Positions 4,010-53,617 of a stretch of DNA of 64,000 nucleotides are shown here, piece after piece. Position 1 is the stretch's first letter, and each line of letters starts with the position of its first letter. Origin of the DNA: a virus. Lineage: Duplodnaviria > Caudoviricetes. A program made the position numbers and the translations under genes. The notes under the pieces were generated by a model, which worked only from the letters and a program-made list of their open reading frames with translations, searched no databases and was not told the DNA's origin. Where the stretch lies: IMG/VR virus record IMGVR_UViG_3300021426_000070, positions 32,001 through 96,000 of that record, one strand, 5' to 3'.

Positions 4010-4471
4010 TTATATTGCATGTGGTAGTATATCTCCATTCTCATAGTAACGGTTGCCTTTCACCTTACTTTCTTCGCCCTCGTCTTTCCGATTTGCTTTT
4101 TGGCGATGCTCTTCAACATCGTGTATCATCTTAAGCATTACCACACAAGCATCTATCGGGCTAGCAAAACCGCTTTTTATCATTGGCATGTGACTTGATG
4201 GAGAAAGACAACTGATAGTCCACCCATCGAAATCACGAAACAGCGTTGGCTTGTTCAACTGCTCGAGCAACGCAACCAATGACCAACAGGGACACCAATA
4301 AGTTTTAATAGCATCTTTATTAGGTGTGCCAACTTTAGGTGTGTTTCTTATTTCTTTAGAAACGTCACCTCTCCATGCTAACCAATAGTACATATCCGCA
4401 CTTTCAATGGGTAGCATCTTACTCAAAGCCTTACTTTGGGACAAGTCTGTGTATGCTTTAATTGTCGTCAT
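4010..4471 (-). CDS. hypothetical protein, paralogue of 5754-6149
   Basis: Shared YT..QS..L...LP..SAD and PCWSL.AL motifs. Confidence 0.65.
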   Translation of the reverse strand: MTTIKAYTDLSQSKALSKMLPIESADMYYWLAWRGDVSKEIRNTPKVGTPNKDAIKTYWCPCWSLVALLEQLNKPTLFRDFDGWTISCLSPSSHMPMIKSGFASPIDACVVMLKMIHDVEEHRQKANRKDEGEESKVKGNRYYENGDILPHAI

Positions 4472-7469: not shown

Positions 7470-7898
7470 TCATAGCCCATTCTTGAGTCTTTTTAATTCT
7501 TTCTCTAACTCAGCAATCTTTGCCTTTCTCTTATCAGCCTCTTCTATCTCGTCTTCTAAGATACTCACCTCTTCGTTTGCCATACGCCAGAAACGCCCAA
7601 GCATCTCACCGTACGTCTCATCTTCATCTTTCTCAGCATAAAAGCCGTTATCCTCATAGCCGTGCCATTTCTGCACCAACCGAGTGTAACCTTGCTTCTT
7701 CAACTCACCAAGGAACTTAACCATCCTATCAATGTCACCAAAGAACTGTTCTTCGTCAATTTCTTTGCTGTGTACGGTCTTCTCTCTTACGAACGCAAAT
7801 GGGTTTCTCTTCTCTAAACGCTCAATAGCCATTTCAGCTAGCTCTTGCTCACTGCTGAAATAATCCTCTAAGAGCTTTTTTCTTATCTTCTTATCCAT
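7470..7898 (-). CDS. hypothetical protein
   Basis: Intact ORF. Confidence 0.6.
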   Translation of the reverse strand: MDKKIRKKLLEDYFSSEQELAEMAIERLEKRNPFAFVREKTVHSKEIDEEQFFGDIDRMVKFLGELKKQGYTRLVQKWHGYEDNGFYAEKDEDETYGEMLGRFWRMANEEVSILEDEIEEADKRKAKIAELEKELKRLKNGL

Positions 7899-7899
7899 A

Positions 7900-8172
7900 T
7901 CACTTTACCATTTGAGTGTCACAAACCAATACATCACCGACAATAAAGTCAGCCCAACCGCATTTCTGCACCTCTTCGGTTGCCTTAGAGTTGTAATCCA
8001 AGCCATCAAGCTTACCCTCTTCGTTAATAACCATAATCTCGTTATCTTGCAAAGGCAGTATCTCAATGTAACCGCCGACTATCTCTTGCAACTCTTCAAG
8101 ACTGAAGTCCGTGCCGTTCTTTGGCGTAACCTCAATGACCTCGTTGTTAGTCTTGATAATTCTAGATGTCAT
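7900..8172 (-). CDS. DUF3846-like protein
   Basis: LEELQEIVGGYIE...INEEGKL...N..AT...IVGDVL motif. Confidence 0.75.
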   Translation of the reverse strand: MTSRIIKTNNEVIEVTPKNGTDFSLEELQEIVGGYIEILPLQDNEIMVINEEGKLDGLDYNSKATEEVQKCGWADFIVGDVLVCDTQMVK

Positions 8173-8189
8173 ATATCTTACAGTTTTCT

Positions 8190-8268
8190 AACGTGTGCCT
8201 CACGCTCTATATTGTTTGTACTATTCTCTTTTAGGAAACTGCCTATATCTTCACAGACGTTGGCAGCT
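8190..8268 (-). repeat. conserved leader element (AACGTGTGCCTCACGCTCT plus TATATCTTCACAGAC hairpin); copies at ~38520-38576 and partial at ~29789
   Basis: Direct repeats located between a promoter and the first gene. Confidence 0.6.
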
Positions 8269-8324
8269 TTGAAAAACACATGACTAAAATCTAAAAACCT
8301 AAAACCTCACTCATATTTTTATAC

Positions 8325-8334
8325 TGCAAAGATA
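8325..8334 (-). promoter_or_regulatory. Bacteroidota -7 promoter box (TATCTTTGCA)
   Basis: Matches TAnnTTTG; recurs in intergenic gaps at 9854, 10722, 17434, 18554, 18970, 19732, 29822, 36114, 38626, 51183, 57147. Confidence 0.7.
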
Positions 8335-8400
8335 AACATTTCTTTTTTAACAAACAAGAAAAATCGAAACTTTCTTGCAGATTTTAACTTTGTTTAAGGA

Positions 8401-8622
8401 TTAAAGGTAATATTCTGCAACGATAGTGCCTTTTTGTGTCACTTTCTTGCGTACCTTAATATCCATACCTCTTTCTCTCAAATCCCATATACGAGCTGAT
8501 AGCCTCGTACACGAAAACATCATGATAGCATCCCAACTTGTAATGGTGCGACCATCTTCTAACCACGCCTTAATCTTGTCGCATTGGCTTGCGCTCTCGG
8601 AAATATTCAAATTATTGTTCAT
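8401..8622 (-). CDS. small winged-HTH protein
   Basis: G.TIT..DA......RLSARI.DLR..G motif typical of phage HTH proteins. Confidence 0.7.
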   Translation of the reverse strand: MNNNLNISESASQCDKIKAWLEDGRTITSWDAIMMFSCTRLSARIWDLRERGMDIKVRKKVTQKGTIVAEYYL

Positions 8623-10359: not shown

Positions 10360-10689
10360 TTAACCATTTATACTACCCTTTGCAGCCGCTGCAGCTCTAT
10401 CTTCATTAGTTGCTCTCATGGCGTTTGTCATCAGAGTAGTAGCTAAAGTACCTTCTTGTGTTCTTGCACCACCAATAGTAAGGAAAGGTCTTGAACCTGC
10501 TATTTCTCTTGATGAAGTCCATCGTGAAGCTATCTCTCTAACTTGCTGTGCTCGTCTTATGTTACCAACAGCATTTGCTTGTCGGGCAAGGCGGCTTGCT
10601 GTCCTATTGATGTTCTCAGCAGTACGGAACGTGGTTCGCTTTAAACCATCACCACCGTAACTAATACGACCATTTCTATTTGTTCTGAC
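10360..10689 (-). CDS. GTC-start Arg-rich protein A (109 aa, VRTNRNG...KGSING)
   Basis: Open frame begins at GTC directly after an in-frame TGA; promoter at 10722; shares RTAENI..TA.RL with protein B; absent from the ORF track. Confidence 0.75.
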   Translation of the reverse strand, partial: VRTNRNGRISYGGDGLKRTTFRTAENINRTASRLARQANAVGNIRRAQQVREIASRWTSSREIAGSRPFLTIGGARTQEGTLATTLMTNAMRATNEDRAAAAAKGSING

Positions 10690-10731: not shown

Positions 10732-10831
10732 CAAATAAAAGAGATAGTACGAATACCACATCTATTATTACTTGTTACACTTTCAAAATAATACCCAAAA
10801 CAGCAAAGATACTGAAATATCAGCAGAAAAA

Positions 10832-10872
10832 CGTTACAACTTTTGAGGTAGGCGTTACAACTTGCGTTACAA
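10832..10872. repeat. three CGTTACAA(CTT) direct repeats
   Basis: Seen in sequence; related to the cluster at 18644-18781. Confidence 0.65.
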
Positions 10873-10923
10873 ATAAAGGGCAGTAACATGTACCGCCCTT
10901 GTTTAGTGCCTTAATCAGTATTA

Positions 10924-13248
10924 TCAATAAACGCCCAACTCTTGCTTAGTAACCTTCTTCTTCACCAATGGATGCCCTAAGATGTTATGTAAAAAATAAT
11001 ACCGTACACCATCGAGTATGTGATTGTCGTGGTCTTCGGGTACGTTTGTGTAGTTACCGAACTTATCCTTTGCATAGACATAGTTTCGCAACTCATCTTG
11101 TGTATTCAAGGAACGCTTAGTTACATAAATCTCATAGTCAAGCATCTTTGACAAACCAGCCTCAATAGAGCCAGCACCTTTAGCCACGGGGTATATGATA
11201 ATACCGCCTAACGCTATCTCATCTACCAATCGTGGGTCTGCGCTCTCGGAATATACAAAACCATCATCACCTCTGTCCGCCTCTTGTCTAAGCTCACGGA
11301 TAATATCGCCACTTGTCATAGCATTTCGGTAACAGAGCTCGTCAATATACAAGCGGTTATCTATAACACCACACCTTGCGATAGCCGTAACGTCATTTGA
11401 ATATCCAAAGTCGATACATCTTCCTATCTTCTTTGCATAGCTCGGGAACTCATCAACGATACCCCATTTCTTGAACACAGCACCCTCAGCGACATCTGCC
11501 CACTGCCCCATGACGATATGCGCATACCTCTGAGGGTTCTTGACCTTCATATCAAGCACCTCTTTCAAGAACTGCTCGGAAAGGTTATTGATATTATCAA
11601 GGTATGTAGTATGGATATGTAGTACGTTCGGGTGTGTGCTTATCTGTACGGGTACGCCATCGAAATACTCTATCTTATGCGTGTCCTTGATAAACCGCTT
11701 ATACACCCAATGGTTAGAGTCGCATGGGTTCATGATGATGATTACCCTATTCTGCAGTCCTTTGACACGAATAGAGAGCATAATCTTCTCAAACTCTTCT
11801 TCCGACACCCATTCCTCAGCCTCATCGACAACAAACGTTGTGACACCTTGGATAGATTTAAGCTTTGCCGTCTGATTACCGCTTGAAGTGTGTATGCCTC
11901 GGAACATCACACGTGCCTTGGTCATATTGTTCACCACATCGGTCTTGGTCTTTGAGAAATACTCTTCTGTATTATCGACCTCCACCTTCTCCCAAAACTC
12001 GGGAATAACGGAGATAGCTGCCGACACCATGGTAAAACGGGTATATAGTATCTGATGGGCTAATTTCTTCTCGGGGTTATACTCAAAGGTGAGGCGTTCT
12101 ATAAAACGGGAAGTGTTGTACGACTTCCCACTGTTGTGACTAACAGTTCCATCTGCGTGTAAATAGCGTTGATTTCCATCCAAATGAATACCACACCATT
12201 CACCATTACCAACAGATTCAATAGTTAGCTTAGAAACCAACCAATCTGCTCTCTTATGTGGATATACTTTCTTACGTGCTATCTTACACGGAATACGCCA
12301 AACATCACCATTAATAGACAACCGATATACTATACCACAATCCTTTTCATATATCTTTGCTCTTCTTGTTCTTAAAGAAGTCCTAAAACCTAATGTATCA
12401 GCTATCAGCTTTATTTGTCTTGCAATAATCTCTTTCTTCTGTGTTATCTCATAACCATTACGAGACATATTGCCATCTGTATCAAGCAAACCAGCCAATA
12501 GCTCGAGTCGTACCTCTTCACTATTAGCTATATACTCTTGCGGAATATGCTTGTTACCTACAAGATTATAGAAACGCAACTTTTCCATAAAAGGATTATC
12601 GTGACACCCTTTTTTCTTTAAACGTAATGTTTCTGCCTTACCACGTTTACCATTCAATGACAACACCATTCCGTTTCTATCTACATACTCTTGCAGATAA
12701 TCCTTTATCTCTTTGTCGGGTGTTGTTATCTGAGGATATACCGAAGTACCGTCACCTAGCCAAACACCGAGCATATAGGGGTCAATCTTTACGGGCTGTT
12801 CTTTGTAAGGAATAGAGTTTGCCTTATAACCATACCAACGTTCTCTAAAATTCTTACTCTGTTTTAAGAACTCTTGAATATTGATATCTATCTTATCTTC
12901 TTTATTTGGATAGCGACCTTCGGAATATATGCCTCTGCCCTTTCTTATGCTTAATATGTGCCCATCGTTTACATAGTAGTCCTCAGCGTTCGTCTGATGT
13001 ACTCTATACATTTCACTATACCCGTGATAGGTTTTAAGCACGTTCCTTGGTGTGCCGTCATCACCCATCACCTTGTCACCAACCTTGATATCCTTAATCT
13101 GTTTAATGGTCATATCTGCCATTATCACCTCTTGGTCGGGTCGCTCACAGCCTCGTCCCCCCGTTACAAGAATGATGAATTTCTCCTTATCGTTATATAG
13201 CGGATAATATACGCTCTGTGTCTTACTCATACTCTTCTCCCGTTTCAA
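10924..13248 (-). CDS. terL: terminase large subunit (PBSX-like) containing an intein
   Basis: Walker A GGRG/SGKS split by an intein; Walker B FVVDEAEE; nuclease motifs DFGYSND and DHILDGVRY. Confidence 0.93.
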   Translation of the reverse strand: MKREKSMSKTQSVYYPLYNDKEKFIILVTGGRGCERPDQEVIMADMTIKQIKDIKVGDKVMGDDGTPRNVLKTYHGYSEMYRVHQTNAEDYYVNDGHILSIRKGRGIYSEGRYPNKEDKIDINIQEFLKQSKNFRERWYGYKANSIPYKEQPVKIDPYMLGVWLGDGTSVYPQITTPDKEIKDYLQEYVDRNGMVLSLNGKRGKAETLRLKKKGCHDNPFMEKLRFYNLVGNKHIPQEYIANSEEVRLELLAGLLDTDGNMSRNGYEITQKKEIIARQIKLIADTLGFRTSLRTRRAKIYEKDCGIVYRLSINGDVWRIPCKIARKKVYPHKRADWLVSKLTIESVGNGEWCGIHLDGNQRYLHADGTVSHNSGKSYNTSRFIERLTFEYNPEKKLAHQILYTRFTMVSAAISVIPEFWEKVEVDNTEEYFSKTKTDVVNNMTKARVMFRGIHTSSGNQTAKLKSIQGVTTFVVDEAEEWVSEEEFEKIMLSIRVKGLQNRVIIIMNPCDSNHWVYKRFIKDTHKIEYFDGVPVQISTHPNVLHIHTTYLDNINNLSEQFLKEVLDMKVKNPQRYAHIVMGQWADVAEGAVFKKWGIVDEFPSYAKKIGRCIDFGYSNDVTAIARCGVIDNRLYIDELCYRNAMTSGDIIRELRQEADRGDDGFVYSESADPRLVDEIALGGIIIYPVAKGAGSIEAGLSKMLDYEIYVTKRSLNTQDELRNYVYAKDKFGNYTNVPEDHDNHILDGVRYYFLHNILGHPLVKKKVTKQELGVY
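12133..13149 (-). mobile_element. intein (339 aa) with LAGLIDADG homing endonuclease
   Basis: Starts at Cys (CERPDQEV), ends VSHN followed by Ser; LGVWLGDG and LAGLLDTDG motifs. Confidence 0.92.
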
Positions 13249-13594: not shown

Positions 13595-13990
13595 TTACTT
13601 TTTACCTTTCTGTACCTTATAAAGACAATCGAACACCCAACTTTGGTAATAGGCATAACATTCGCTGTTGTAACTCCTTTCCGTCTCACCTATATCCTCA
13701 AAGAGCCAATCAGCGCAATGGGATGCCTCATGACTGAGCGACTTCAATTGCGTGTCTTTCCTTATAAGGACTAGACACCCCTTGATGTTCTGTGCTTTGT
13801 TGCCTACAATAAAAGTCTTTGCATCTACGCCGACATCCAATAGTGTATTGTTCTCCTTGAACGACATACCTATGTTATCATCATATATCGCCTCAAAAGC
13901 ATTATCTATCTCATCTATGGTAATGCCATCTAATGCCACCCATACCTTTGTAGGAAAGATGATAGGGTCGAACTCATATATCTTACTCAT
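13595..13990 (-). CDS. hypothetical protein with HExxH (metallopeptidase-like) motif
   Basis: SHEASH...SECYAY. Confidence 0.55.
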   Translation of the reverse strand: MSKIYEFDPIIFPTKVWVALDGITIDEIDNAFEAIYDDNIGMSFKENNTLLDVGVDAKTFIVGNKAQNIKGCLVLIRKDTQLKSLSHEASHCADWLFEDIGETERSYNSECYAYYQSWVFDCLYKVQKGKK

Positions 13991-14556
13991 TGCCCGCCCT
14001 CTTCTTTCTCTAACTCGTTCTCTCTCTCAAGCCATGCAGATATGCTTACGCCATTCTTGACCTTTATCTGCACGTCACTATCCTCTATGCCCCTTTGGAT
14101 ATTCCTAAACTGAGGGTCATGGTGGTAAAGGAAGTTAGCAAGTGCTTGCATGTTTGGTGCTGTCTCTTGCTCTGACTCGGTGATATCCTCTATGCGGTTA
14201 TTCTTGTCAGCAACGCCATTGACAACATTGTACCTCATACGTACAACCTTGCCTTTCACCTTAATGCCTCCGAGGGCTGCTTTGAGGTATCTACCCCTTA
14301 CAATTCCTAGTACTCGAGAACGTCCGTGTGCTAACTCTTCGGAGATACGAGCACCCCTTTTTGCGTTCTCTTCATCATTCCATCCTTTGTATTTACCCGC
14401 TTTCATTTCTGAAAATGTAGTGGGCGTTAATCCCGCAACCCCTAGACTATCACCTAGAGCATATGCAATTTCCCCATCTTGGAGACCTTGCATAGCGAGG
14501 GCATATATCTCTTTGTAGAAGTCCTCGCTATCATAGTCGAACTTTGGTTTTGCCAT
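13987..14556 (-). CDS. terS: terminase small subunit
   Basis: HTH-like N-terminus (QDGEIAYAL); APNMQAL..FL motif; lies upstream of terL. Confidence 0.7.
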   Translation of the reverse strand: MAKPKFDYDSEDFYKEIYALAMQGLQDGEIAYALGDSLGVAGLTPTTFSEMKAGKYKGWNDEENAKRGARISEELAHGRSRVLGIVRGRYLKAALGGIKVKGKVVRMRYNVVNGVADKNNRIEDITESEQETAPNMQALANFLYHHDPQFRNIQRGIEDSDVQIKVKNGVSISAWLERENELEKEEGGQ

Positions 14557-14702: not shown

Positions 14703-15044
14703 TTATCCCGAGATAGCTGCTTTTGCAGCGGTATTGGGTGTGTACGTCTGTGATTGTCGTGCAGCCACCTCATAGTTTACGGTGTTTCCTATTACCTTGG
14801 TGAGTACTGCACCACTATCATTAGTAAGGGCTTCATTGGGTCTAATGCTGTCTGCCCTACCTACTGCCCTTAGATAGTTAGCCTCTATGGTTCTGATACG
14901 CTGCTGCCTTTGTCTGTTGCCTCTTGCAGCCGCTACTAACCGCCTTGCAGTCTCCCTTATATTCTCAGCAGTTCTATACGTGCTGTTGTTGCCATCAAGT
15001 GGGCTTGTGCTATTGTAAAATGATGGATTCTTTAATCTTTTGAC
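14703..15044 (-). CDS. GTC-start Arg-rich protein B (113 aa, VKRLKNP...AAISG)
   Basis: No Met anywhere; in-frame TAG 5 codons upstream of GTC; AGGAGG 8 nt upstream. Confidence 0.78.
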   Translation of the reverse strand, partial: VKRLKNPSFYNSTSPLDGNNSTYRTAENIRETARRLVAAARGNRQRQQRIRTIEANYLRAVGRADSIRPNEALTNDSGAVLTKVIGNTVNYEVAARQSQTYTPNTAAKAAISG

Positions 15045-15060
15045 TCTGCTTCCCTCCTAT

Positions 15061-15309
15061 TTATCCGTTACTACTACCTTTTGCAGCTAGTGGTGCGTAC
15101 TTGTCACCGATACGAGCACCATAAGATACCTTGATGTTTGCCCTACGAGACCAATCCACGCTCTGCAAGCGGTCGTTGATATTGTTTCTATACTCTTGTG
15201 CGATACGTGAGATACTTGCTAGACGTGTGCCCCTAGCTGTATTCGACATACGGGCTGCTTGCTCGTTGATATCGCCTATAGACTTTGCCATTGGTTCTCT
15301 CCGTCTGAC
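15061..15309 (-). CDS. GTC-start Arg-rich protein C (82 aa, VRRREPMAKS...KGSSNG)
   Basis: AGGAGG 7 nt before the in-frame GTC AGA; alternative ATG at 15291. Confidence 0.7.
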   Translation of the reverse strand, partial: VRRREPMAKSIGDINEQAARMSNTARGTRLASISRIAQEYRNNINDRLQSVDWSRRANIKVSYGARIGDKYAPLAAKGSSNG

Positions 15310-15320
15310 TCTGTACCCTC

Positions 15321-15521
15321 CTATCCGTTTGAATTTGATAAGGCATTGAGCATATTCGCTCTTGCTCTGCCTATTCTGTTATAGTTATCTTGCCCATACT
15401 GCCTTAGTAATGCATTCGCACGGCGATTAATGGCTCGTCCTACCATGGCTCTTCTTGCATATTGCCCCAAACCTCTTACATCACTAGTACGATATTCCAA
15501 TGTTCTCTTACTTGCTCTGAC
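15321..15521 (-). CDS. GTC-start Arg-rich protein D (66 aa, VRASKR...SNSNG)
   Basis: AGGAGG-AAGC-TGA-GTC-AGA: in-frame TGA immediately before GTC. Confidence 0.72.
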   Translation of the reverse strand, partial: VRASKRTLEYRTSDVRGLGQYARRAMVGRAINRRANALLRQYGQDNYNRIGRARANMLNALSNSNG

Positions 15522-15532
15522 TCAGCTTCCTC

Positions 15533-15664
15533 CTATCTGTTAGATAATCCCATTTGACATACTCTAATTAAAGATTGTTGGATGATAACGCAACTGTCCG
15601 TTAGCGAAATGCTTCTTGGTCTTACCATTGCTCTCCAATTCGACAATGCCCTACCGAAATACAT
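15533..15664 (-). pseudogene. degenerate family member (43 aa, ends MGLSNR)
   Basis: C-terminus resembles the MGLSNG motif but lacks the terminal Gly. Confidence 0.35.
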
Positions 15665-15666
15665 TT

Positions 15667-15924
15667 TTAACCATTACTCAATCCCATATACGAGCTACGT
15701 GCAAACTGCAGTCTGTTGGCTCTGCCCATATTGCGCATATACTCATCTGTGTTGTCCTCAGCCGACACGTTGCCACGAGCCGCCTTATAGCTTGATTTGT
15801 TACGTATGTTGCTTACGTACCTCATAGCTGCTTGGAAAGCTCTATCCAAACGTTCCCCGTCTGTCCTAGCCGCTATGCGGTTGTACTGACGTGTTATATC
15901 ACTTACTGACTTTGTTCTTCTGAC
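15667..15924 (-). CDS. GTC-start Arg-rich protein F (85 aa, VRRTKSVSDI...YMGLSNG)
   Basis: TAG-TGT-CGG-GTC-AGA; conserved KS..DI..Q N-terminus lies upstream of the TTG used by the ORF track. Confidence 0.75.
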   Translation of the reverse strand, partial: VRRTKSVSDITRQYNRIAARTDGERLDRAFQAAMRYVSNIRNKSSYKAARGNVSAEDNTDEYMRNMGRANRLQFARSSYMGLSNG

Positions 15925-15930
15925 CCGACA

Positions 15931-16176
15931 CTAACCATTACTCATACCCATATAGGTACTACGTGAATACTTTCTGTTGTCTATCTCATTAATATTACCA
16001 TTGCCACGAAGTGCATTTCTGTATGCGCTCGAATAGCTTGGTGTGTTCTGAATGTTATTCAGATACCTAAGAAACGTTCTTCCTATGCGGTCTTGTCTCT
16101 GAGGATTACCCTCTGAGCGTTCCCACAAAGCTTGCGCTTGGTCAAGTATATCATTCTTACTCTTATTTCTTCTGAC
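15931..16176 (-). CDS. GTC-start Arg-rich protein G (81 aa, VRRNKSKNDI...YMGMSNG)
   Basis: TAA-AGC-CGA-GTC-AGA; paralogous to F and H. Confidence 0.75.
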   Translation of the reverse strand, partial: VRRNKSKNDILDQAQALWERSEGNPQRQDRIGRTFLRYLNNIQNTPSYSSAYRNALRGNGNINEIDNRKYSRSTYMGMSNG

Positions 16177-16182
16177 TCGGCT

Positions 16183-16395
16183 TTATCCGTTTGTAAGACC
16201 CATATAGGTAGAGCGTGAATACTTTCTGTTGTAAGCACCCTCACCGCCTTTTCGAAAGCTGCGTTGGCGCATAATCCTATCGGTGTATCTGTCAGCCGCT
16301 ATGTTAGCCGCTGCCACCCTAGAAGCCGTTGCTCGTGGATTGTTCTCTATCCTATCGGCTTGCTCTAAGATTTCTCCAAAACTCTTCCCTCTGAC
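16183..16395 (-). CDS. GTC-start Arg-rich protein H (70 aa, VRGKSFGEI...YMGLTNG)
   Basis: No ATG/GTG/TTG between the upstream in-frame TGA and GTC; shares NRKYSRSTYMG with G. Confidence 0.75.
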   Translation of the reverse strand, partial: VRGKSFGEILEQADRIENNPRATASRVAAANIAADRYTDRIMRQRSFRKGGEGAYNRKYSRSTYMGLTNG

Positions 16396-16484
16396 TCTTC
16401 TGTTACTTTTAATTGTTATTATACATCAAATGCTACGGCAGACACTCTAACGAGGGAAAGCCATAGCATATATTCCGTGTCGGG

Positions 16485-17015
16485 TTATCCCGCTGACAAG
16501 CCCATTGAATACGTGCCGTCTGCGTTCTGTCTGATGACATTGCCACCGCTACCCTCAAGACGACCTTCAACAACACGTGCCATGCCGTTATCAAGCCATG
16601 CTTGGATTACCCTAGGCGAAATGTTGTTCATACCCGTGCGAACATCATAGTCACGCTGACGGCGGTTAGAAAGCGACTTACGACCACTCTGTGACACAAG
16701 ATTTCCATCCATATCACGATTGGTAAACGTCCATGTGCTACCGCCAGCCCTACGACCATCTGCAGACATCTTACCAGACCTTGTGCGGGTGATGGTCTGA
16801 ATCTGCTGACCGCTGTTCCACGCTTGCTGCTGACCTTGCAACTCTGAAAGCTGATAGCCTCGAGAATTAACCAAAGGCTGTGCAGTACGTGCTCCACCAG
16901 TATAAGCGGAGTTTGCACCACGTCCATCAATACCCGCATTGATTCGGGCACGCTGCTGAGATACCGTATTGGTATTCGGATTGGTGCGATTTCGTTCTGT
17001 TCTTTTTCTTGGCAT
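16485..17015 (-). CDS. Arg-rich protein I, ATG start, ends MGLSAG
   Basis: Same C-terminal motif as the GTC-start family. Confidence 0.75.
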   Translation of the reverse strand: MPRKRTERNRTNPNTNTVSQQRARINAGIDGRGANSAYTGGARTAQPLVNSRGYQLSELQGQQQAWNSGQQIQTITRTRSGKMSADGRRAGGSTWTFTNRDMDGNLVSQSGRKSLSNRRQRDYDVRTGMNNISPRVIQAWLDNGMARVVEGRLEGSGGNVIRQNADGTYSMGLSAG

Positions 17016-17041
17016 AGTTCTTCTATATTAATTATTAAACA

Positions 17042-17413
17042 TTATCCTACCGCATTACCCATCTTTGCAGAATTGGACGAATTAGCTGATGAGCCACGAT
17101 AGACTTCCCTTCCTAGCTCTGCATAGCGTTCACGATTGTAATCACGGATAAAGCGTCCGTGCGTTGCATTTGCTGCATTGGGGTTAGCTGCCGCACGTCT
17201 CTCTATCTCTCTCTGTATGTTGTCGATATAACGCTGACCGATGGCACTAAGCCGCTCTCTGTTCCTATACCACGTGTCCGTACCATAGGTGCTGCCCTCG
17301 ATACGGGCTAACTGAGCCCTTACAGACTCGATAGAGCGACCTCTTCGGGTGCTACGCCTAGTATTGGCGTTCACCCTCGCATTGCCTAAGTATGATAAAT
17401 TACCTTTTCTGAC
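17042..17413 (-). CDS. GTC-start Arg-rich protein J (123 aa, VRKGNLSY...MGNAVG)
   Basis: The promoter box at 17434-17443 lies inside the ORF-track N-terminal extension; the first motif after it is AAAGGA-TTGCAGA-GTC-AGA. Confidence 0.7.
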   Translation of the reverse strand, partial: VRKGNLSYLGNARVNANTRRSTRRGRSIESVRAQLARIEGSTYGTDTWYRNRERLSAIGQRYIDNIQREIERRAAANPNAANATHGRFIRDYNRERYAELGREVYRGSSANSSNSAKMGNAVG

Positions 17414-17433
17414 TCTGCAATCCTTTCTTTTGT

Positions 17434-17443
17434 TGCAAAGATA
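17434..17443 (-). promoter_or_regulatory. Bacteroidota -7 promoter box driving the GTC-gene array
   Basis: TATCTTTGCA. Confidence 0.65.
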
Positions 17444-17706
17444 GGTATAATTCCGTATATAAGGAAAGTATTTCCATAATGAAAACGCACACTTTACAAA
17501 TAGTGCCAAATGACATCATTAGAGCATACTCATTTAGCATTTTTCTCCTTATCTTTGCATTGGTAATTTTTCGGTTCAACAAATCTTTTTTCTGTATAGG
17601 GGGTTGTCCGTGAGGATAGCCCCTTATCGTATGCAAAAAAAGTGAGCCTACTTTCACAAGCAAGCCCACAATAAGACAATAATAAATAAATAACGTGTAT
17701 AATTTT

Positions 17707-18540
17707 CTAGTCAATAAATTCTATCCTCTGTGAGAACTCTTCACCCTTGATAAAACGCATATCATCGGGATAGCCCGCACGTGCCATAAACTCTTGCTTC
17801 GACTTGAAGTCATCGAAAGAAAGCATGATGTACGCCTCTTGGTTCATGGCGTTCTCGATGGCTTGGGTCTTAACTTGCTCCTTGACATCTTTCATGTGCT
17901 GCTTCTTCTCTTCGTAGCTCTTCTGCTCATTCTTCTCTATCTGAGCGTCCTGCATGGCATTGGCTTGCACTTGTGCCGCCTTGATAGCCTCACGCTGCTC
18001 ACGCTGACGTTCTAAGTCCCGTTGGTGCTCTTCGTTGACTTGCGCCATCATATCGTCCAACTCTGAGGACAGCTTGTTCTCTTCCTCGGTCTGAAAAAAA
18101 TAGTCAGTGCCAATCATGGATAGGTCAACTTCTGTAAGCCCCGCTTTCTTGTAATCCATGAATGGGATAATCTCAGCCAACTTCTGATAGTCAAACTTAC
18201 CGCCTATCTGCGGGTTGTTCAGTGCCGTCAGCACCTCGAGCTCTTCCTTTTCATCGACATCAATAACCTCACAACGGAGCATATAATCCGTCTCGGGTTT
18301 CTCGGGTTCATACTTCTGCTGCTCATCGAGCAACGCCACCTTCTGATTACCGCCCACTAGAACATAGTCGTTACGCTTATTAACAATGATACCGCCTAAG
18401 ATACCAAAGTTCTTCATAGACCGCCTTAACGCCTTTCTACCCTCATCGTCAATGGTACGTGGGTTACGTGGGTGAAAATGTATCTGTGAGCGTTTGAGCT
18501 CTTGTATCTCACTATTTGCAAAAAACTTACTTAACTCCAT
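17707..18540 (-). CDS. ParB/Srx-like N-terminal domain protein
   Basis: HPRNPRTI...L..SMKNFG..GGIIVN....LVGGNQ motif; likely start MELSK. Confidence 0.8.
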   Translation of the reverse strand: MELSKFFANSEIQELKRSQIHFHPRNPRTIDDEGRKALRRSMKNFGILGGIIVNKRNDYVLVGGNQKVALLDEQQKYEPEKPETDYMLRCEVIDVDEKEELEVLTALNNPQIGGKFDYQKLAEIIPFMDYKKAGLTEVDLSMIGTDYFFQTEEENKLSSELDDMMAQVNEEHQRDLERQREQREAIKAAQVQANAMQDAQIEKNEQKSYEEKKQHMKDVKEQVKTQAIENAMNQEAYIMLSFDDFKSKQEFMARAGYPDDMRFIKGEEFSQRIEFID

Positions 18541-18643
18541 AATCTTATTTTTCTGCAAAGATAAACAGAAAATGTTTATTCAGCGCATTATTTGTACCAC
18601 AATAGCATACTCTTTTGAAAGTGTATCAAATCAATTTGTATGT

Positions 18644-19034: not shown

Positions 19035-19700
19035 TTATTTAATCTTTCTACGGGTAAAAGTCATGCCATTATCCTTTGCGAACTTCTTGATGACAGAGAA
19101 TTGTATGCCTACATTGGCTCTGTCGCTTATCTCTTGCGCCCTCTGCCTTGTCAAATTTCCTTGTCTCTTTGCATTTGCAGCCGTACTAAACGCATAAGCG
19201 TTCATTCTGCTCGAATAGGTCGCATCAAGCATATTGAGCTCAGAGAATATCTTCTGCTTGTCCCCCCAACCGCCTTTCGGTCTGCGGATAGAGTATGTAT
19301 AGGTCGGTGTTACGGCTCTCACTTCTTTTTGGTCGTACTTCACAGCGTTCCTAATATCTTGTGGTGAGAATGGTACGCCTATTCTACCCGCCATCGTGCC
19401 ATGGAGTCCAGAATTTGCACCCTCTGTCGGATGGTTGTGTGTAAGGATAGCGTCCTTTGTCTTAGCCAAATCACGAATTAAGAACTTAGCACTACTAGCA
19501 TTTCCGCTTACCGACTCTGCGATAATCTCACCATTAGACCCCACAACATACCCTTTTTCAGTCTTGCGGTTGCGTATCTTAGCCTCTAGTTGGCTCACCT
19601 TGAAAGCCTCTTGTCTGTTCATGCCGCTTTCGGTATCGTGAAGATAGCTTCTATCTGTCTTACGTGCCGCCCTTCCTATCGTCTGTATTCCTTCACCCAT
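19035..19700 (-). CDS. JAB/MPN-like (THNHP...FSPQDI) phage head-associated protein
   Basis: E...HNHP...S..D motif; basic protein. Confidence 0.55.
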   Translation of the reverse strand: MGEGIQTIGRAARKTDRSYLHDTESGMNRQEAFKVSQLEAKIRNRKTEKGYVVGSNGEIIAESVSGNASSAKFLIRDLAKTKDAILTHNHPTEGANSGLHGTMAGRIGVPFSPQDIRNAVKYDQKEVRAVTPTYTYSIRRPKGGWGDKQKIFSELNMLDATYSSRMNAYAFSTAANAKRQGNLTRQRAQEISDRANVGIQFSVIKKFAKDNGMTFTRRKIK

Positions 19701-24629: not shown

Positions 24630-25245
24630 AACTTTTTAAACTTTTCGTTCAAGAATTGGATATACCACGTTCTGTTCCGTGACCTTCTAAAGCTAACCTC
24701 AGCCAATATCATATCTCGCCGACAATAGGCAAGCCACTTCTTAGCTTCATCAAAGTCGAAAGACGCATACAACGCCTTTTCTTGCCTTAGCTTTTTGCGG
24801 TAGCCTACACGATAGAACAGCCTATCTTCAAAATCTATCACCACCAAGCCGTATATCTTGTTGGCACGTCTGCGGAGTTTCTTTAACAACCTTACTTTCA
24901 TAACTCTAACCTTTTAATTTCTTCAACTTTTGATATAATGAATCCAATACAGCATTTTTGCTCTCTTCGGCGGCTGCTGCAAGATACTCTATCTGCTCGT
25001 CACTCGGTTGGAGAGATTTAAGCAAACTATCAAAACTTTCATATCCTTCTGCATGAAGAAAATTGAGAAGTTCATCCTCTTCGTCATGCTTCCGCCTCTC
25101 TTCCAAATGTTCAGCCACAAAATCTGCATAGTTCTTAGCCACACCACGTATAGCTGCCCTTCCGTGAGAAACATTGCCACTTGTTAGTTTCTCACTTCTT
25201 TCCATAATGTCCTTAAACCATGAAAGACAAAGCTCTAAGACTTCT

Positions 25246-26280
25246 TTATCTGTTTTCATCATAGTTATATAACTTTAGCAATTGTTCTTTCAAATCCTTA
25301 AACAGATTGTAAAAATAATCGTTTTCTTTTGGACTTTCACTTGAAGCCATAAGATTTACCACATAGTTCAATGCGTGTATCTGCTCGTTAGTCGGCTTCC
25401 AAATGGTCTGAGGATAATATTTATCTCTTATGCTGCGTAACGCATCTGCCATATCTTCATTGTCAGTATTATCAAGATGACAAGCGATTGATTCTATTTC
25501 ATTATAGTCCTCGTCACTCCAAGGCTTTGGCTCAACAAGTTCCCATCCATCTTGGTCTTGAATATCAAAGTTTGTAGTATCGCCATAATAGCAAGTATTA
25601 TCAATACTCTCTATGGTGCATTCAAACCCATCAATAATTGATTTCACTTTATCACCAACCTTAAACTTTGGCTCAACCTCAGTAGGCTTCTGTACTAAAC
25701 GAAGATAAGGATTGTCAAAAGAGAAGTGAATAACAGCTTTATCTCCCATTTTTTCCTTACCTCGATACTCACATATATAGCATTCTTTATCCATATATAC
25801 AATCTCGTAGATAGGCTCTCCTTTATAATTTGTGTTCTTTACATAGTCACCAATTTTGTACTTGGGTATATATTTATGCTCACCTTGAACTTCAGTAGGC
25901 TTTGCCACCCTTTTAAGCTGTGACAGATTGATAAGTACACCATCTTCATTGCGTGTCACCTCGTCACCAATTTGGATAGAGTCACGGAACTTTTTGTGCG
26001 CACCTTGCGTTTCAAGCCATGCAATATATTCTTGTTTAAAGCCACCACGACTTTTGACAAATTCAATAAGTTCTTTCCTAATTCTCTCGTCCTTGCTCTC
26101 TTCTTTTGGCAAATTCCTCAGTTCTTCGATTGGCAAATAATAAGCATCTTTAGCTACAATTACCCCAGCGTTTGAACCTACTTTTGGTGGAATAGTGCCG
26201 TCATTTCTCATCAAGAGTGCATCACAAGGTAATTCCTCTCCCTTTGCTATTCTTCTCCATTGTATTTTATTTGTTTCCAT
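25246..26280 (-). CDS. modular WSEEDE-family protein
   Basis: ES.DERIRK.LI, PKFKVGD, WSDED and WKP..EQ modules. Confidence 0.7.
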   Translation of the reverse strand: METNKIQWRRIAKGEELPCDALLMRNDGTIPPKVGSNAGVIVAKDAYYLPIEELRNLPKEESKDERIRKELIEFVKSRGGFKQEYIAWLETQGAHKKFRDSIQIGDEVTRNEDGVLINLSQLKRVAKPTEVQGEHKYIPKYKIGDYVKNTNYKGEPIYEIVYMDKECYICEYRGKEKMGDKAVIHFSFDNPYLRLVQKPTEVEPKFKVGDKVKSIIDGFECTIESIDNTCYYGDTTNFDIQDQDGWELVEPKPWSDEDYNEIESIACHLDNTDNEDMADALRSIRDKYYPQTIWKPTNEQIHALNYVVNLMASSESPKENDYFYNLFKDLKEQLLKLYNYDENR

Positions 26281-26283
26281 AAC

Positions 26284-26994
26284 TTACTCCTCCCTTAGTT
26301 TCTTTAATTGCTTTTCTAATTCTACAAGTATCTCTGACAATGTTGGGTGCTCGTCAAAATCATCAACGACAAAAGACCTTGCAAGTCTTACTGCCTTAAT
26401 CTGCTCATCACTCGGCTTCCATCTATTCTGAGGTCTGAGGGATTTGAGCTTATTTTTGAGCCATTTGATTTCATCTTCTATCCTGTCAGGTATATACTCA
26501 TTCCAAGGATTCACGAGGTCTTTAATTATATCACTAAGGAACTTTTCATCCTCTTCACTCCAAGGCTTCTGCTCATAGAGTTTCTTAACGGCACTGATAG
26601 CGCATTCGTGCTCTAAAATGCCGTCATCAGTCTGATAGCCATCAACCTTGCCACGAGTTCTTTCCAAAATGGAAATAGCATGCCACAGTCCGTCAATACC
26701 ATAGTCTTCACCATTAGGTAAATCAGTAGGCTTCTTCTCACCTTGCTTTTCAATCCAAGCAAGTAGTTTTTCTTCACTTATTTCTTGTCCTTGATACTTT
26801 ATGCCATACTTATCACAAGCACATTTTACTATATGTATAAGCGTTTTTCTTATCTTCTCGCTCTCATCTATTTTGAGTTCTGGAGCTACAGCATCAAGTA
26901 CAGAGTTAAAAGTATATACCCCTTTCTCTTCTCTTGCCTTATTTAGCCTTTTAACGAGGTCTTTGTATTTCTCTTCGTAAGTTTCCATAATCAC
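26284..26994 (-). CDS. modular WSEEDE-family protein
   Basis: Contains the duplicated 135-bp segment. Confidence 0.7.
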   Translation of the reverse strand: MIMETYEEKYKDLVKRLNKAREEKGVYTFNSVLDAVAPELKIDESEKIRKTLIHIVKCACDKYGIKYQGQEISEEKLLAWIEKQGEKKPTDLPNGEDYGIDGLWHAISILERTRGKVDGYQTDDGILEHECAISAVKKLYEQKPWSEEDEKFLSDIIKDLVNPWNEYIPDRIEDEIKWLKNKLKSLRPQNRWKPSDEQIKAVRLARSFVVDDFDEHPTLSEILVELEKQLKKLREE

Positions 26995-29474: not shown

Positions 29475-30215
29475 AATCTCTTTTCTTTTTATTTATTAAC
29501 ACCTACTTATCTAAATCAACAACCTTTGAAGCGCAATAATGCTTGAAGAAAAAGTCTGTATGTATGAACCGCCCCATTATGATAGGCTCACCACTATACG
29601 ACCAATCCATATAACAAAGCGTATCGCCGCTCTCAGTCTCTACAATAGCAAACACATTGATTAGCATGCCATCGCTTTTATCTAAAAGCTTCTGTAAGTC
29701 CTTTGACACGTAAATCTTCTTGCTGTCTTCTGCTTTAAAGACAAACGACTTTGCTCTCTCTTTATCCATAACTCTTGTACAGTTTTTAACGTGTGTCTCA
29801 CGCTCTAAATAAATTTGACGATGCAAAGATAAGTAAATTATCCTACACCGCCAAACAAAACAGCAACAAAAATGTATTTGTTTACACTATTTAACCTTTC
29901 ACCACAACCGCTTAACAAAATTACACATTCTATGCGATTTGGTGGGCTTCTTACATATCGTCCAAGTCTTGCTCCAACTTCTTTTTCCTCGTCTCCAATG
30001 ACTGAGTGCGTAACTTGATAGCGTTCATAATGCTTTCATGTACCAATCCAGCAAGGTTGCAGCTATTTTTCATGACATAGACAATACGCTCCGCATATTC
30101 AACACTGTTAGGCTTCTTACTTATTTCACCAAGATGGTTCTTAAAGTCTTGCAGTTCCGCAATCTCTTTGTTTGTCTTTTCAAGACTTTCAATAAGTTTC
30201 TTAACTTCGATAGCT

Positions 30216-30956
30216 TTACTTATTTTCATTTTCTTTATCTTTTTTATAGTGATACTCTAATAATACTCTCTGACACAAGGGAAACGTCTGATATATCTTC
30301 TGTAAGTCTTGCGGATAATTGGTCTCAAGCCATAGTAGGCAATCGACATTAAAGCCTATGCCGTTGGATGCCTTTCCGACCTTTGCCCCGTCTCCGCTAG
30401 TAGCAAGCGAATACATAACGGGTTCGGGGAGATTATGCATCTTCATATAGCTGAGTATTTGCTTTTGCGAAAACTCCGCACACGGGTAGGCTTGATAGTT
30501 ATCTGTGTAATGGTTCTCCTTAAAGCGGGTAATCATAAGGTTGCGGTTCATGCCGTCAGCCTTCTTCATGCCTAGGAACACCCATTGCGTGTTGTATTTC
30601 AGCCGCAGAGCCTTGATGACATCAGCAAGCTTCAGCAACTTTTGGTTTGGGTGTGGCGTACAATACAATCCGCTTCTTAGTATATACGTCAGATTCCAAT
30701 GCGGCACTTCCAAGAACTCCACATTCGGGTATTTGGCTTTCACCCAATTTATCCATCTGTCTATATGCTCTAAGCCTTGAACGAAATACAAAAACACACA
30801 TATCACCTTCTTGAACCTCGGATATATTAAATCTAACGTTACTATAGAATCCTTTCCGAGCGAACACATGAGGATGCACGTATCAGTCTGACTAGCCACG
30901 TAGTCGATACAATCATTAGCCGCTATCAGCGGATTACTTCTTATCTTCTTTGCCAT
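30216..30956 (-). CDS. PAPS-reductase-like / PP-loop family protein
   Basis: SLGKDS PP-loop; GMKKADGMNR. Confidence 0.8.
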   Translation of the reverse strand: MAKKIRSNPLIAANDCIDYVASQTDTCILMCSLGKDSIVTLDLIYPRFKKVICVFLYFVQGLEHIDRWINWVKAKYPNVEFLEVPHWNLTYILRSGLYCTPHPNQKLLKLADVIKALRLKYNTQWVFLGMKKADGMNRNLMITRFKENHYTDNYQAYPCAEFSQKQILSYMKMHNLPEPVMYSLATSGDGAKVGKASNGIGFNVDCLLWLETNYPQDLQKIYQTFPLCQRVLLEYHYKKDKENENK

Positions 30957-32422
30957 ATATTAAAGTATATCTTCGTCTTCAATCTCTTCATTCTCGTTGT
31001 ACCACTCACAATCATTAGGCTTGAAATAATCTTCTACCCTACAACCTTTAAAGCAGAAATTATTCTCGCTTTCATATCTTTCACACATCACACAACAATG
31101 CTTTGGGATAGGGTACACCTCATAGATATCTGTTTTCAGATACGGCTTCTTCCGCCCTTTTAACTTATCACAAAAAGTATATTTCGGTGCATTGTTCTTT
31201 GTGATATAATGCGAATCAGCACCATCTATTACCTCTTCTAACGGCTTGTAATAAAACGCAAACGAGCCCGTTACCAACTCTTTTACCTTTACAACCTCAG
31301 CCATACGACCACCATCATGCGAATTGCCGATAAATATCTTGTCACCTACTTTGGCATTTCCGAACCAATAGAACCCTTCTGTGCGTTCATGTGGGTGTAT
31401 TATTGCCACACACCGCTTTCTATCTACCCACCCGTCATTACAACGATAGGCTTTAACGCCTAGAGCCATCAGCTTATCATGGAACTCTGAGCACGTCCTA
31501 TTAAACTCGTTGGTAATATCCACCATCATACCAACCAAGTTGCTGTCATTGACAACGACACTGCCGCCATTGCCTAAATCTATCTTCTTGCCGATAGACC
31601 CATCTTCATTAACATAAAGTGGGAACTTACCGCCTTTCAACCTCTCTTCCATTACTCATCAACCTTAGCGTATTTGACAATATCAAGGAAGTTGTTTATT
31701 CGTGACACAACAGAATCTATCTTGCCATAGGCATTAGAATACCTCCTTAATGCCGTCCTCATAGCCCCATCCTCAGAACAAGCCCCTACAGCCTTTTCTA
31801 CAATCCCTATCCTATCTTTAATGGACTGCATACGCTCCAAAGCCTTCTCGAGCTGCTTCATGGCAATATCCATCATGTTTTTGTCAACGCTGAATGTAAC
31901 CAAAGGCGGAATATCTTCCATCTTATCCGTATCAGACAAGGCTTGTATTAGTAACTTGTTCTGTCTTTGGGCTGTATCAAGCTGCTGCTGCAAGCCATCT
32001 GTCACATCCCTAACAACAGCATCCCTACTAGACTGCATTTCTTGCAGATTGATAGCTAGGGCTTTATTTTTCCTAACTGCCGCCTCATATTGGCTACGAA
32101 CAACAGAAATACGTTTCTGCAATCGCTCTTTGTCCTCTTTGAGCTCGCTGTTCTCTCTCTCCAACACCTCAGCATGCCTCCGTGCCTTTTCAACTTGCTC
32201 GTTAATTCTTCGGTAGTCCTTGATGATGTACTTCATTCGCACCTCATAAGGAAGTTCGTCTTGTGGTCTGCCCATAATAAATTGTTTGTGCCCATGTGGG
32301 CGGTTAATAAATACCTTGTATAATACGCATCACTTCTGCCGTGCTGATATTCGCTCTCATAGCCTCATGGCGGATGAAACGCTTGAAATCAGCATACACC
32401 TCTTCATCGGAAATCGTCTGTT

Positions 32423-34445: not shown

Positions 34446-34796
34446 TCATAATACAATCTTCTCACCTAACTTATACACAACTTGCGCCTTCAGATACTCT
34501 TCACCGTCTTCGACATACGACACGAGTTCGCCATTCTCGTCCTCGAAAAGCTCTATCCACGCCTCTTCAATCTTGCATGTGTACGTATCATGCCCACAAG
34601 CAAACTGAACGATATCATAGTGCCTAGGTTGGAGCTCACCGTTCACCTCTCGCACATACCCGTCTTCGTCCAAATCACAATACTTCTTTTGTGTGTTCGG
34701 GCGAATCTCTCTCTTGTACTCAGTTACAAGTTTCTGTCTGATAGCCTCTAGTGACTGAGGCTTTGTTGCTAACTTTAATATATCCATTTTAACCAC
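34446..34796 (-). CDS. ASCH/PUA-like protein
   Basis: K..EYKREIRP...Y...YD..QF..G pattern resembles ASCH. Confidence 0.5.
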   Translation of the reverse strand: MVKMDILKLATKPQSLEAIRQKLVTEYKREIRPNTQKKYCDLDEDGYVREVNGELQPRHYDIVQFACGHDTYTCKIEEAWIELFEDENGELVSYVEDGEEYLKAQVVYKLGEKIVL

Positions 34797-35457
34797 TTGT
34801 TAATCCTAACGTATTTCTGTTTACGCCACCTTTGGGCACTTCTTTGTTTCTTGCCTTAATCATAGCATCATAGCTCTTGTGGAGCTTTACCTTGTCACCA
34901 TCTACAATAGCCATACTATTATGCTTGCTGATAACCTCACCAAGTGATTTTGGCAATACCATAGCAAAGACATCGGGACGTTCGCTGCCATCCCATCCTT
35001 CAGGAGCGTATTCGTCATTGAACTTCACCCTACCCGTTGCCTTTGCGCCATACCTAGCATACATACTAGCTAGCTTGTCACCATAGCAGTCAAGCTTCTT
35101 GCCACCAAGAGCAACAGCATAAGGAATTAGCTTACCTAGGCTATTTGAACCCTTGACACTAGAGAATACCGACACCACATCACCATTACGTTTGATAGCT
35201 AACCCCGCTTTGCCGTCTGAGGTAAGATACAAACGCATACGCCCATACTCTTTTTCTGTGTGTAAGTCCACCTTCCATCCGTGGGCATTAGCAGCCTTAC
35301 CGCTTGCTATAGCAGCATGAAAAACCTTTGGCGACACTCTGTTAAGAGAAAGGTTGCTGTGCTTGATACCATTTCTCTCTAACTCAGAGTTTACACGGAG
35401 TGATACAGCCCTAGCGTAAATTTGTTCTCTTGTAAAACTACTCATCTTTCTTGTGAC
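34789..35457 (-). CDS. GTC-start protein K (VTRKMSSF...LGLTSG) with GNAT-like core
   Basis: GCCGA-GTC in frame 4 codons before the ATG at 35445; same C-terminal Gly motif; LDCYG...MYARYG is GNAT-like. Confidence 0.65.
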   Translation of the reverse strand, partial: VTRKMSSFTREQIYARAVSLRVNSELERNGIKHSNLSLNRVSPKVFHAAIASGKAANAHGWKVDLHTEKEYGRMRLYLTSDGKAGLAIKRNGDVVSVFSSVKGSNSLGKLIPYAVALGGKKLDCYGDKLASMYARYGAKATGRVKFNDEYAPEGWDGSERPDVFAMVLPKSLGEVISKHNSMAIVDGDKVKLHKSYDAMIKARNKEVPKGGVNRNTLGLTSG

Positions 35458-35462
35458 TCGGC

Positions 35463-35642
35463 TTACATAGTATAATAGTCAGCCCACTCTGTAGGGCTAT
35501 CATAAGTCTTGTTTACATACTCAAGGTAGTTATCATCCATTTTGTCGATAACCGCACGTGCCTCTGTTTCACTATAAACAGACTCGCCCGTAGCTTCATT
35601 CTTTACGGCTATAAGAGCCTTATACAAACCCTCTTTTGTCAT
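35463..35642 (-). CDS. small acidic hypothetical protein (59 aa)
   Basis: ATG-to-TAA ORF below the track cutoff; stop lies 5 nt before the GTC of K. Confidence 0.55.
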   Translation of the reverse strand: MTKEGLYKALIAVKNEATGESVYSETEARAVIDKMDDNYLEYVNKTYDSPTEWADYYTM

Positions 35643-37071: not shown

Positions 37072-37105
37072 TTGTTATTTTATCGTTTATTGAAATTTTT
37101 CAGAG

Positions 37106-37178
37106 TTGCGGCGGGGGAACTCGAATCCCCGACCTCCACCAAGTCAAAGTGGCAAGCTACCATCTGCTCCACGCCGCG
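37106..37178 (-). tRNA. initiator-type tRNA with valine anticodon GAC
   Basis: CGCGGCG-TG-GAGC-AGATGGTA-GCTT-G-CCACT-TTGACTT-GGTGG-AGGTC-GGGGA-TTCGAGT-TCCCC-CGCCGCA-A; C1:A72 mismatch, A11:U24, A73. Confidence 0.88.
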
Positions 37179-53214: not shown

Positions 53215-53292
53215 TGGGCTTTGTCGGGTTCGAACCAACGTCACTCTTGCGAGTTCACTAGTACAAGCTCTACCAAATTGAGCTAAAAGCCC
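53215..53292 (-). tRNA. tRNA-like element with aberrant anticodon arm
   Basis: Intact acceptor (GGGCTTT/AAAGCCC), D and T arms; no standard 5-bp/7-nt anticodon arm. Confidence 0.6.
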
Positions 53293-53528: not shown

Positions 53529-53617
53529 GGAGGGGAGACGGACTCGAACCGCCGACCATACAGCTATAGCGCAAAGCCTATAAGTTACTGCTGCTCTACC
53601 AACTGAGCTATCCCCCC
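53529..53617 (-). tRNA. tRNA-like element with elongated anticodon arm
   Basis: Canonical acceptor, D and T arms; about 15 extra nt in the anticodon arm (TATAG-GCTTTGCG-CTATA). Confidence 0.65.

Follow-up and report, generated by a model that had tools for sequence, protein, structure and literature searches.

Why do ten proteins of one bacteriophage, built on at least three unrelated cores, finish on the same short run of residues, closed by a Gly at the stop codon? The question is raised by a stretch of DNA of 64,000 nucleotides (the window), positions 32,001 to 96,000 of the IMG/VR record IMGVR_UViG_3300021426_000070. The source of the window is the complete 129-kb genome (completeness 100% according to CheckV) of a Bacteroidales-type gut phage, and almost all genes of the window lie on the minus strand. 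Small open frames follow one another in tandem between a TerS-like gene and a ParB-N-like gene (the array), and two further genes with the same tail are found outside it, gene A directly after an intein-bearing TerL gene and gene K 17.4 kb off. The tailed proteins are Arg-rich and have isoelectric points of 9.9-12.0. Chance does not account for the shared tail, and it is tentatively suggested here that the tail may serve to load its carriers into the procapsid. Every C-terminus was re-derived from stop-to-stop frames, which are given last in each line of the following list.

10360-10689, minus strand: gene A, standing alone just downstream of TerL; 109 residues from GTC; tail ...AAKGSING; TGA directly before GTC-AGA; frame 10360-10689
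14703-15044, minus strand: gene B, last unit of the array; 113 residues from GTC; tail ...AAKAAISG; homologues P0003-P0008; frame 14703-15056
15061-15309, minus strand: gene C; 82 residues; tail ...AAKGSSNG; frame 15061-15378
15321-15521, minus strand: gene D, a subtype of its own; 66 residues; tail ...ALSNSNG; frame 15321-15521
15533-15673, minus strand: remnant E, a degenerate unit without start motif; end ...QMGLSNR
15667-15924, minus strand: gene F; 85 residues; tail ...SSYMGLSNG; frame 15667-15930
15931-16176, minus strand: gene G; 81 residues; tail ...STYMGMSNG; frame 15931-16182
16183-16395, minus strand: gene H, the unit type best conserved across phages; 70 residues; tail ...STYMGLTNG; frame 16183-16425
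16485-17015, minus strand: gene I, with an ordinary ATG start and an unrelated core; 176 residues; tail ...YSMGLSAG; frame 16485-17015
17042-17413, minus strand: gene J; 123 residues from GTC; tail ...AKMGNAVG; frame 17042-17515
34789-35457, minus strand: gene K, with a predicted GNAT-fold core, a basic N-terminus and a disordered 12-residue tail, ...NTLGLTSG; 222 residues; frame 34789-35478

A shared C-terminal tail

The ten C-termini had been listed correctly in the initial annotation, and all ten end in Gly. The tail has the consensus [TA][YA][MK]G-x-[STN]-x-G-stop, which by residue can be written [TA][YA][MK]G[LNS][STN][NVA]G. The pattern [MKLSA][GA]x[STNI]xG-stop matched eight of the 1442 six-frame open reading frames (ORFs) of 40 residues or more in the 129-kb genome, and all eight were tailed genes, with no false positives. 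Only 14 of the 230 ORFs on the minus strand that begin with ATG end in Gly. A chance origin of the shared tail is excluded. In the decayed copy E the terminal Gly has been replaced by Arg.

The initial annotation had proposed a portable C-terminal signal, with capsid loading or ubiquitin/ThiS-like conjugation as its possible function, and had held that absence of the terminal Gly from homologues would speak against it. The Gly is kept in 46 of 48 non-redundant ORFs with the GTC motif described below (related contigs L001, L002 and L004-L009), the two exceptions being a one-base-shift variant ending LGNSNT and a member from L009 that extends beyond the YMG anchor (...TYMGTQGNKASIIL). A word-indexed search for homologues found it at the end of 39 of 41. 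An exhaustive profile search returned 719 cluster representatives at E <= 1e-3, 146 of them at E <= 1e-10; terminal Gly is present in 139 of the best 150 of the 719, and exactly four residues follow YMG in 136 of the 146. The rare longer tails, with five to eight residues after YMG, mostly end in Gly still (VAKGGNAG, IANNAG, LAGSKG, LNTGG, LANSKG, LANGGNAG). Overall the last residue is Gly in 93-96% of family members, and the penultimate one is N, V, S, Q, A, E or K, with G rare. Judged by these comparisons the tail is conserved across a large uncharacterised phage family, which has no match in Pfam, PHROG or PDB, and the motif itself was not found in the literature. A search for further loci with an H-type profile returned the same two IMG/VR contigs only, and alignment added none, the proteins having no conserved stretch of 7-10 residues. 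One database representative of 166 residues, P0070, consists of two family units fused by read-through (...YMGINAG-Q-EVSRVKQKRTKS...), and its junction retains both the tail and the SRVK start motif.

Ser at position -3 is encoded by both of its codon families (14 AGY and 13 TCN), the Gly at -5 follows the genome-wide codon usage and all four GGN codons occur at the terminal Gly. The terminal Gly is also retained where no coupled gene lies downstream, as in B and in the K homologue of the relative L017, which faces a convergent gene. Because codon families vary and the tail persists without a coupled downstream gene, it is under selection at the level of the protein. An origin purely as a DNA repeat was also considered, and it is ruled out by the synonymous and codon-family variation.

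Cores of the tailed proteins

The tailed proteins had initially been described as otherwise divergent. This stands for I and K, and perhaps for D, which are unrelated to the others, but the remaining seven (A, B, C, F, G, H and J) are paralogues that form one helical Arg-rich family. An alignment of 21 small members shows homology over the full length (VRxKSxxxIxxQxxRL...RY..NI), with a conserved basic N-terminus (MARRKS or VRRxKS) and with the terminal Gly as its sole invariant column. A hidden Markov model (HMM) built from 100 database representatives recovers F, G, H, J (E = 2e-7), C and B (E = 0.0027), and the subtype formed by A and B matches the main family in hhalign with a probability of 88.6% (E = 2.6e-6). 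No significant profile match was found between D and the main family. When the small family was compared with I by hhalign, the aligned part consisted of the six tail residues only (MGLxxG), and in the comparison with K nothing was aligned. Since hhalign aligns only the tail in one case and nothing in the other, the tail is common to at least three unrelated cores, one in I, one in K and one in the helical family.

The AlphaFold2 model of F consists of four helices, with a predicted local distance difference test (pLDDT) score of 73.4, and in it the last 10 residues (76-85) fall below a pLDDT of 50. The model of K, made with an alignment, reached a pLDDT of 85.6 and a predicted template modelling score (pTM) of 0.82, and here the last 12 residues (211-222) fall below 50. 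The tail is thus predicted to be disordered, and because this is so in both K and F while their cores are modelled, it is a terminal linear motif rather than part of a domain. The idea of a portable signal gains support from the unrelated cores, the low pLDDT of the tail and the retention of the terminal Gly in homologues. The fold of F had no match in PDB, and for the small family and for I nothing usable was obtained from Pfam, PHROGs, the ESM Atlas or the PDB fold search. A likeness of the small family to ribosomal protein bS20 was considered and rejected: the Foldseek hits were at chance level (probability 0.16-0.23), hmmsearch against PDB gave E = 0.19 and, once the 100-sequence profile was used, only E = 3, PF01649 (Ribosomal_S20p) had no match in the genome at E <= 10 and no member matches it in Pfam.

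K had been singled out in the initial annotation as a 222-residue protein with a GNAT-like core about 18 kb away, and the models agree with this. In a Foldseek search of PDB with the K model all of the top hits were GNAT enzymes (probability 0.9-1.0, E from 2e-3, template modelling score 0.36-0.59), so that the core of K is, as modelled, a GNAT fold. K has no match in Pfam at E <= 1, and its sole PHROG match, PHROG 2563, has no annotated function. Its homologues mostly end ALG[LM]xxG and distant ones PGIG, PNMG or ALGGG[KR], with three exceptions. The K homologue of L027 and L028 ends ...ALGGGK and not in Gly, and is placed between a PAPS_reduct gene and a block of endolysin, TerL and portal genes. 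The domain of K corresponds to the C-terminal part of a 'minor capsid protein' that Microbacterium phages encode after the portal (approximately residues 361-491 of 525), with which K shares 39% identity (E = 1e-23); one such protein, Caron gp4, matches Pfam VG15 and not Phage_Mu_F. The domain is also found inside a 3125-residue ORF of Limnohabitans phage DC33 and inside ORFs of 846 and 1124 residues, and in L017 the K homologue lies between the portal and major capsid protein genes. In a Streptomyces phage version of the domain (128 residues) the tail is absent.

Neighbouring genes and gene starts

The genes that bear on the setting of the array and on its start motif are as follows.

13987-14556, minus strand: TerS-like gene, directly downstream of the array
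10924-13248, minus strand: TerL with an intein/LAGLIDADG insert, named from the Pfam annotation of relatives
17707-18558, minus strand: ParB-N-like gene, directly upstream of the array
37105-37178, minus strand: initiator-like tRNA with GAC anticodon, context of the start motif

The arrays are always found at the head of the packaging genes, just upstream of TerS and TerL, and they are usually flanked by the terminase, a ParB-N gene and a PP-loop gene of the PAPS-reductase type. In L018, L019, L022, L024 and L028 the arrays or K have a PAPS_reduct (PP-loop) gene immediately upstream. In a more distant relative represented by a 65-kb fragment (G001), the PP-loop, ParB, TerS and TerL genes are adjacent, and in these 65 kb there is no array and no family member. 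For this reason the array looks like an accessory insertion. The array-less relative L003 carries, just upstream of its PP-loop gene (4185-4406), a 73-residue basic ORF rich in Gly, Arg and Asn, which has no tail and no family match. The major capsid protein of the phage (21937-23031 in G000) is of the lambda-E/HK97 type, the portal is encoded at 30116-31558, and the head module also includes proteins of 307 and 198 residues. Between the portal and capsid genes lies a pair of genes for an Amidoligase_2 protein and a class-II GATase (GATase_4), at 25613-26719 and 24823-25362 in G000 and at 11613-12719 and 10823-11362 in the coordinates of L010. The pair is also present in G001, and in L017 it occurs together with FGase and adjoins the K homologue; co-occurrence of the amidoligase was checked in one relative (G001), and most contigs are partial. 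Just upstream of the ParB-like gene (19035-19700, minus strand) is a gene for a 221-residue protein with a RadC/JAB-like HNHP...SPQD motif, for which no match was found in Pfam or PHROG. The TerL of this phage is a protein of 774 residues including an intein with a LAGLIDADG endonuclease; in L004, L005, L007 and L009 TerL is either uninterrupted (429 residues) or has 1089 residues with more inserts. As close relatives differ in this way, the intein content of TerL is polymorphic.

Nine of the ten tailed genes, all but I, have in frame a motif nGA-GTC-A(G/A)A, of the GAGTCAGA type, that precedes every ordinary start codon. The GTC directly follows a TGA stop in A and D, and B is an open frame of 117 codons in which no ATG, GTG or TTG start would yield more than about 19 residues. 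In K the motif (GCCGAGTCACA) lies four codons ahead of an ATG. The phage encodes the initiator-like tRNA with anticodon GAC listed above. Gene I starts at ATG here and its homologue in L004 has the GTC motif, and sister phages L018, L022 and L024 have arrays of 7-12 members that start at ATG (MARRKS...) and end ...YMGLNxG. From these two contrasts the tail can be separated from the type of start, and it does not depend on a GUC start. That the array might be a single long recoded ORF was considered and rejected: a frame running across TAA and TAG stops is shared by H, G and F but not by D, E, C and B, and no suppressor tRNA was found in the window.

Some further observations concern the starts and the tRNAs. 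A perfect AGGAGG is found 7-8 nucleotides 5' of the GTC in B, C and D (15040-15060, 15305-15325 and 15520-15535, minus strand), which is odd here, the remaining genes of the phage having no Shine-Dalgarno sequence and its promoter-like boxes being of Bacteroidales type (TAtcTTTG upstream of J). In L027/L028 (prophages in genomes of cultured Muribaculaceae) the K homologue at 7830-8519 follows a GTT form of the start motif, TAGCGAGTTAAA. Among the Muribaculaceae strains with a K homologue is Paramuribaculum intestinale DSM 100749. The initiator-like tRNA was not reported by the Rfam gathering scan. A tRNA cluster includes an 89-nucleotide tRNA with the four-base anticodon 'atag' (53529-53617, minus strand), called by ARAGORN, and a tRNA at 53215-53292 (minus strand) that was found by Rfam and missed by ARAGORN.

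Possible functions of the tail and known systems

A virion link is suggested, on circumstantial grounds, by the position of the arrays next to TerS and TerL, by that of A after TerL, by that of the K homologue of L017 between portal and major capsid protein genes and by the fusion of the K domain to a head-module protein. We tentatively read the tail as a C-terminal docking signal that loads proteins into the procapsid, which we consider possible though somewhat short of probable. It is the best-supported reading because the settings of the K domain are typical of virion-delivered proteins and because the array is basic and diversifying. The tail itself is a portable short linear motif on a flexible C-terminus: its anchor ([YA][MK]G) is small and hydrophobic or basic, four further residues usually follow, and a free Gly at the end is obligatory. 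All carriers would dock on one common partner, most likely the inner surface of the procapsid or the portal, during assembly of the head. The basic helical proteins and the GNAT enzyme would then enter the capsid along with the DNA and reach the next host with it, much as do T4 internal proteins by means of their capsid-targeting sequence, or as encapsulin cargo is held by C-terminal targeting peptides in an HK97-fold shell. The array, tandem and variable, would in that case be a hyperplastic locus for proteins that are injected.

A number of points weigh against procapsid loading. The scaffold-like and capsid genes of the phage do not carry the tail, the motif appears unlike every known targeting peptide, and none of the GenBank or cultured phages carries the family. 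Docking alone does not obviously need an invariant last residue, nor does it explain the strong bias towards GGA and TAA in the last codons that is described below. To these must be added the differences from T4 and from encapsulins that are set out with those systems.

It might instead be supposed that the tail binds one host protein, for example a hub of replication, transcription or translation, and that unrelated effectors are recruited there without being packaged. A disordered terminal linear motif on unrelated cores would suit this, and the proteins are small, basic and diversifying, like many host-takeover proteins. No search points to a host partner, however, there being no relatives in Pfam, PHROG or PDB, and to our knowledge the tail is unlike the motifs of clamp, SSB or other known bacterial hubs. 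The neighbourhood of packaging genes and the fusion of the K domain to a head protein favour the virion, and docking on a host hub is considered rather doubtful.

Activation of the terminal Gly has also to be weighed. Here the carboxylate of the Gly would be activated by an ATP-dependent enzyme of the phage, either the Amidoligase_2 working with the GATase or the PP-loop ATPase of PAPS-reductase type, and would be amidated or joined to an amine, whether on a capsid or host protein (through a Lys), on a polyamine or on a DNA adduct, loosely in the manner of Pup, ubiquitin or ThiS. No other column of the family is invariant, and the Gly persists when the tail changes in length; both points are consistent with such chemistry, as are the presence of Amidoligase_2 and GATase_4 in the head module of the phage, the same pair with FGase next to the K homologue of L017, the PAPS_reduct gene directly upstream of the arrays or K in the five relatives named above and the RadC/JAB-like gene adjoining the array. 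On the other hand the penultimate residue, typically Gly in E1-activated modifiers, is variable here and often bulky, the folds of the cores are helical or GNAT with no beta-grasp, and 8-12 paralogues per genome would be odd for a modifier. G001 has the amidoligase and the PP-loop-ParB pair while its 65 kb hold no family member, many phages have amidoligase-GATase pairs for which no connection with proteins of this sort is reported, and in this window the PP-loop gene lies 13 kb from the array. Activation of the Gly is unlikely on this balance. A more specific proposal, in which the basic helical proteins would be modifiers of a phage 'pupylation-like' system, their Gly joined to lysines of the capsid or host, to packaged DNA or to polyamines by the Amidoligase_2/GATase pair or a PP-loop ATPase, is decidedly improbable.

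Selection on RNA can be examined in the last codons. The last Gly codon is GGA in 35 of 46 members (76%), compared with 16% of Gly codons genome-wide, AAC is enriched at codon -2 and favoured over AAT, and the stops of the family are TAA 35, TAG 12 and TGA 1 as against 41, 12 and 21 in the genome; the junctions between units measure only 3-20 nucleotides. The GGA and AAC bias and the near absence of TGA at the ends of units suggest a secondary pressure at the RNA level at cistron junctions, on top of the protein motif. That the tag is altogether a by-product of such selection, with AAC-GGA-TAA kept for initiation of the next cistron or for tuning of termination, is highly improbable, since the context upstream of GUC genes that stand alone (A, K, H and J) does not include GGA, the tail persists in genes that are last, isolated or followed by a convergent gene, in ATG and GUC lineages alike and in K homologues of other genomic contexts, Gly is written with each of its four codons and Ser with either of its codon families, and the Y-M-G anchor lies farther upstream with normal usage of its Gly codon.

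If procapsid loading is true, the tail would be a simple transferable C-terminal address for the heads of widespread Bacteroidales gut and rumen phages, of use in engineering phages that carry cargo. Injected proteins could then be recognised by it with ease, among them a GNAT enzyme and a fast-evolving array of DNA-charge-neutralising or anti-defence proteins, and it would give a function to an unannotated family of at least 719 sequence clusters. Should the Gly be activated and conjugated, it would represent a new protein-tagging chemistry in viruses.

T4 takes its internal proteins (IPI-III) and Alt into the head and injects them together with its DNA, and their N-terminal capsid-targeting sequence is removed by the prohead protease. 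As in the present case, small basic proteins and an enzyme have only a short terminal signal in common and are encoded by a variable multi-gene locus. The T4 signal is N-terminal and cleaved, whereas here the shared element is C-terminal with its Gly at the stop codon, and no T4-type cleavage motif or prohead protease was identified for the tailed proteins or the phage. MuF-type minor capsid proteins and polyvalent proteins carry effector domains, and the GNAT-like domain of K is found covalently attached in Caron gp4 and in the giant multi-domain ORFs, both being ways to deliver effectors with the virion; K differs in being a free protein of 222 residues with a basic N-terminus and a Gly tail in place of the fusion. 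Pup, ubiquitin-like proteins and ThiS-MoaD are likewise small, with a flexible tail and an invariant terminal residue, and among the gene products of this genome are a JAB-like protein, a PP-loop ATPase and an amidoligase resembling glutamine synthetase. Here, in contrast, there is no di-Gly and, in the models of F (four helices) and K (GNAT), no beta-grasp; the proteins are very basic, many paralogues occur per genome and the candidate enzymes are found also without the family, in the 65 kb of G001.

The targeting peptides of Family 1 encapsulins (GSLxIGSLK, GGDLGIRK and TVGSLIQ) are short, C-terminal and rich in Gly and hydrophobic residues (PMC10960027). They resemble the present tail in being flexible, in combining Gly with one to three hydrophobic residues and in being portable between unrelated cargo proteins, and they bind a P-domain pocket on the inner face of an HK97-fold shell, the capsid protein of this phage being of HK97/lambda-E type. 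They usually end in K or R where the present tail ends obligatorily in Gly, the tail consensus does not fit the published encapsulin motifs (GSLxIGSLK, LGIxK or TVGSL), and the shell here is a DNA-filled phage capsid. Terminal targeting peptides as such are already known; a C-terminal one that ends in Gly and is common to unrelated phage proteins would be a new form of such a device.

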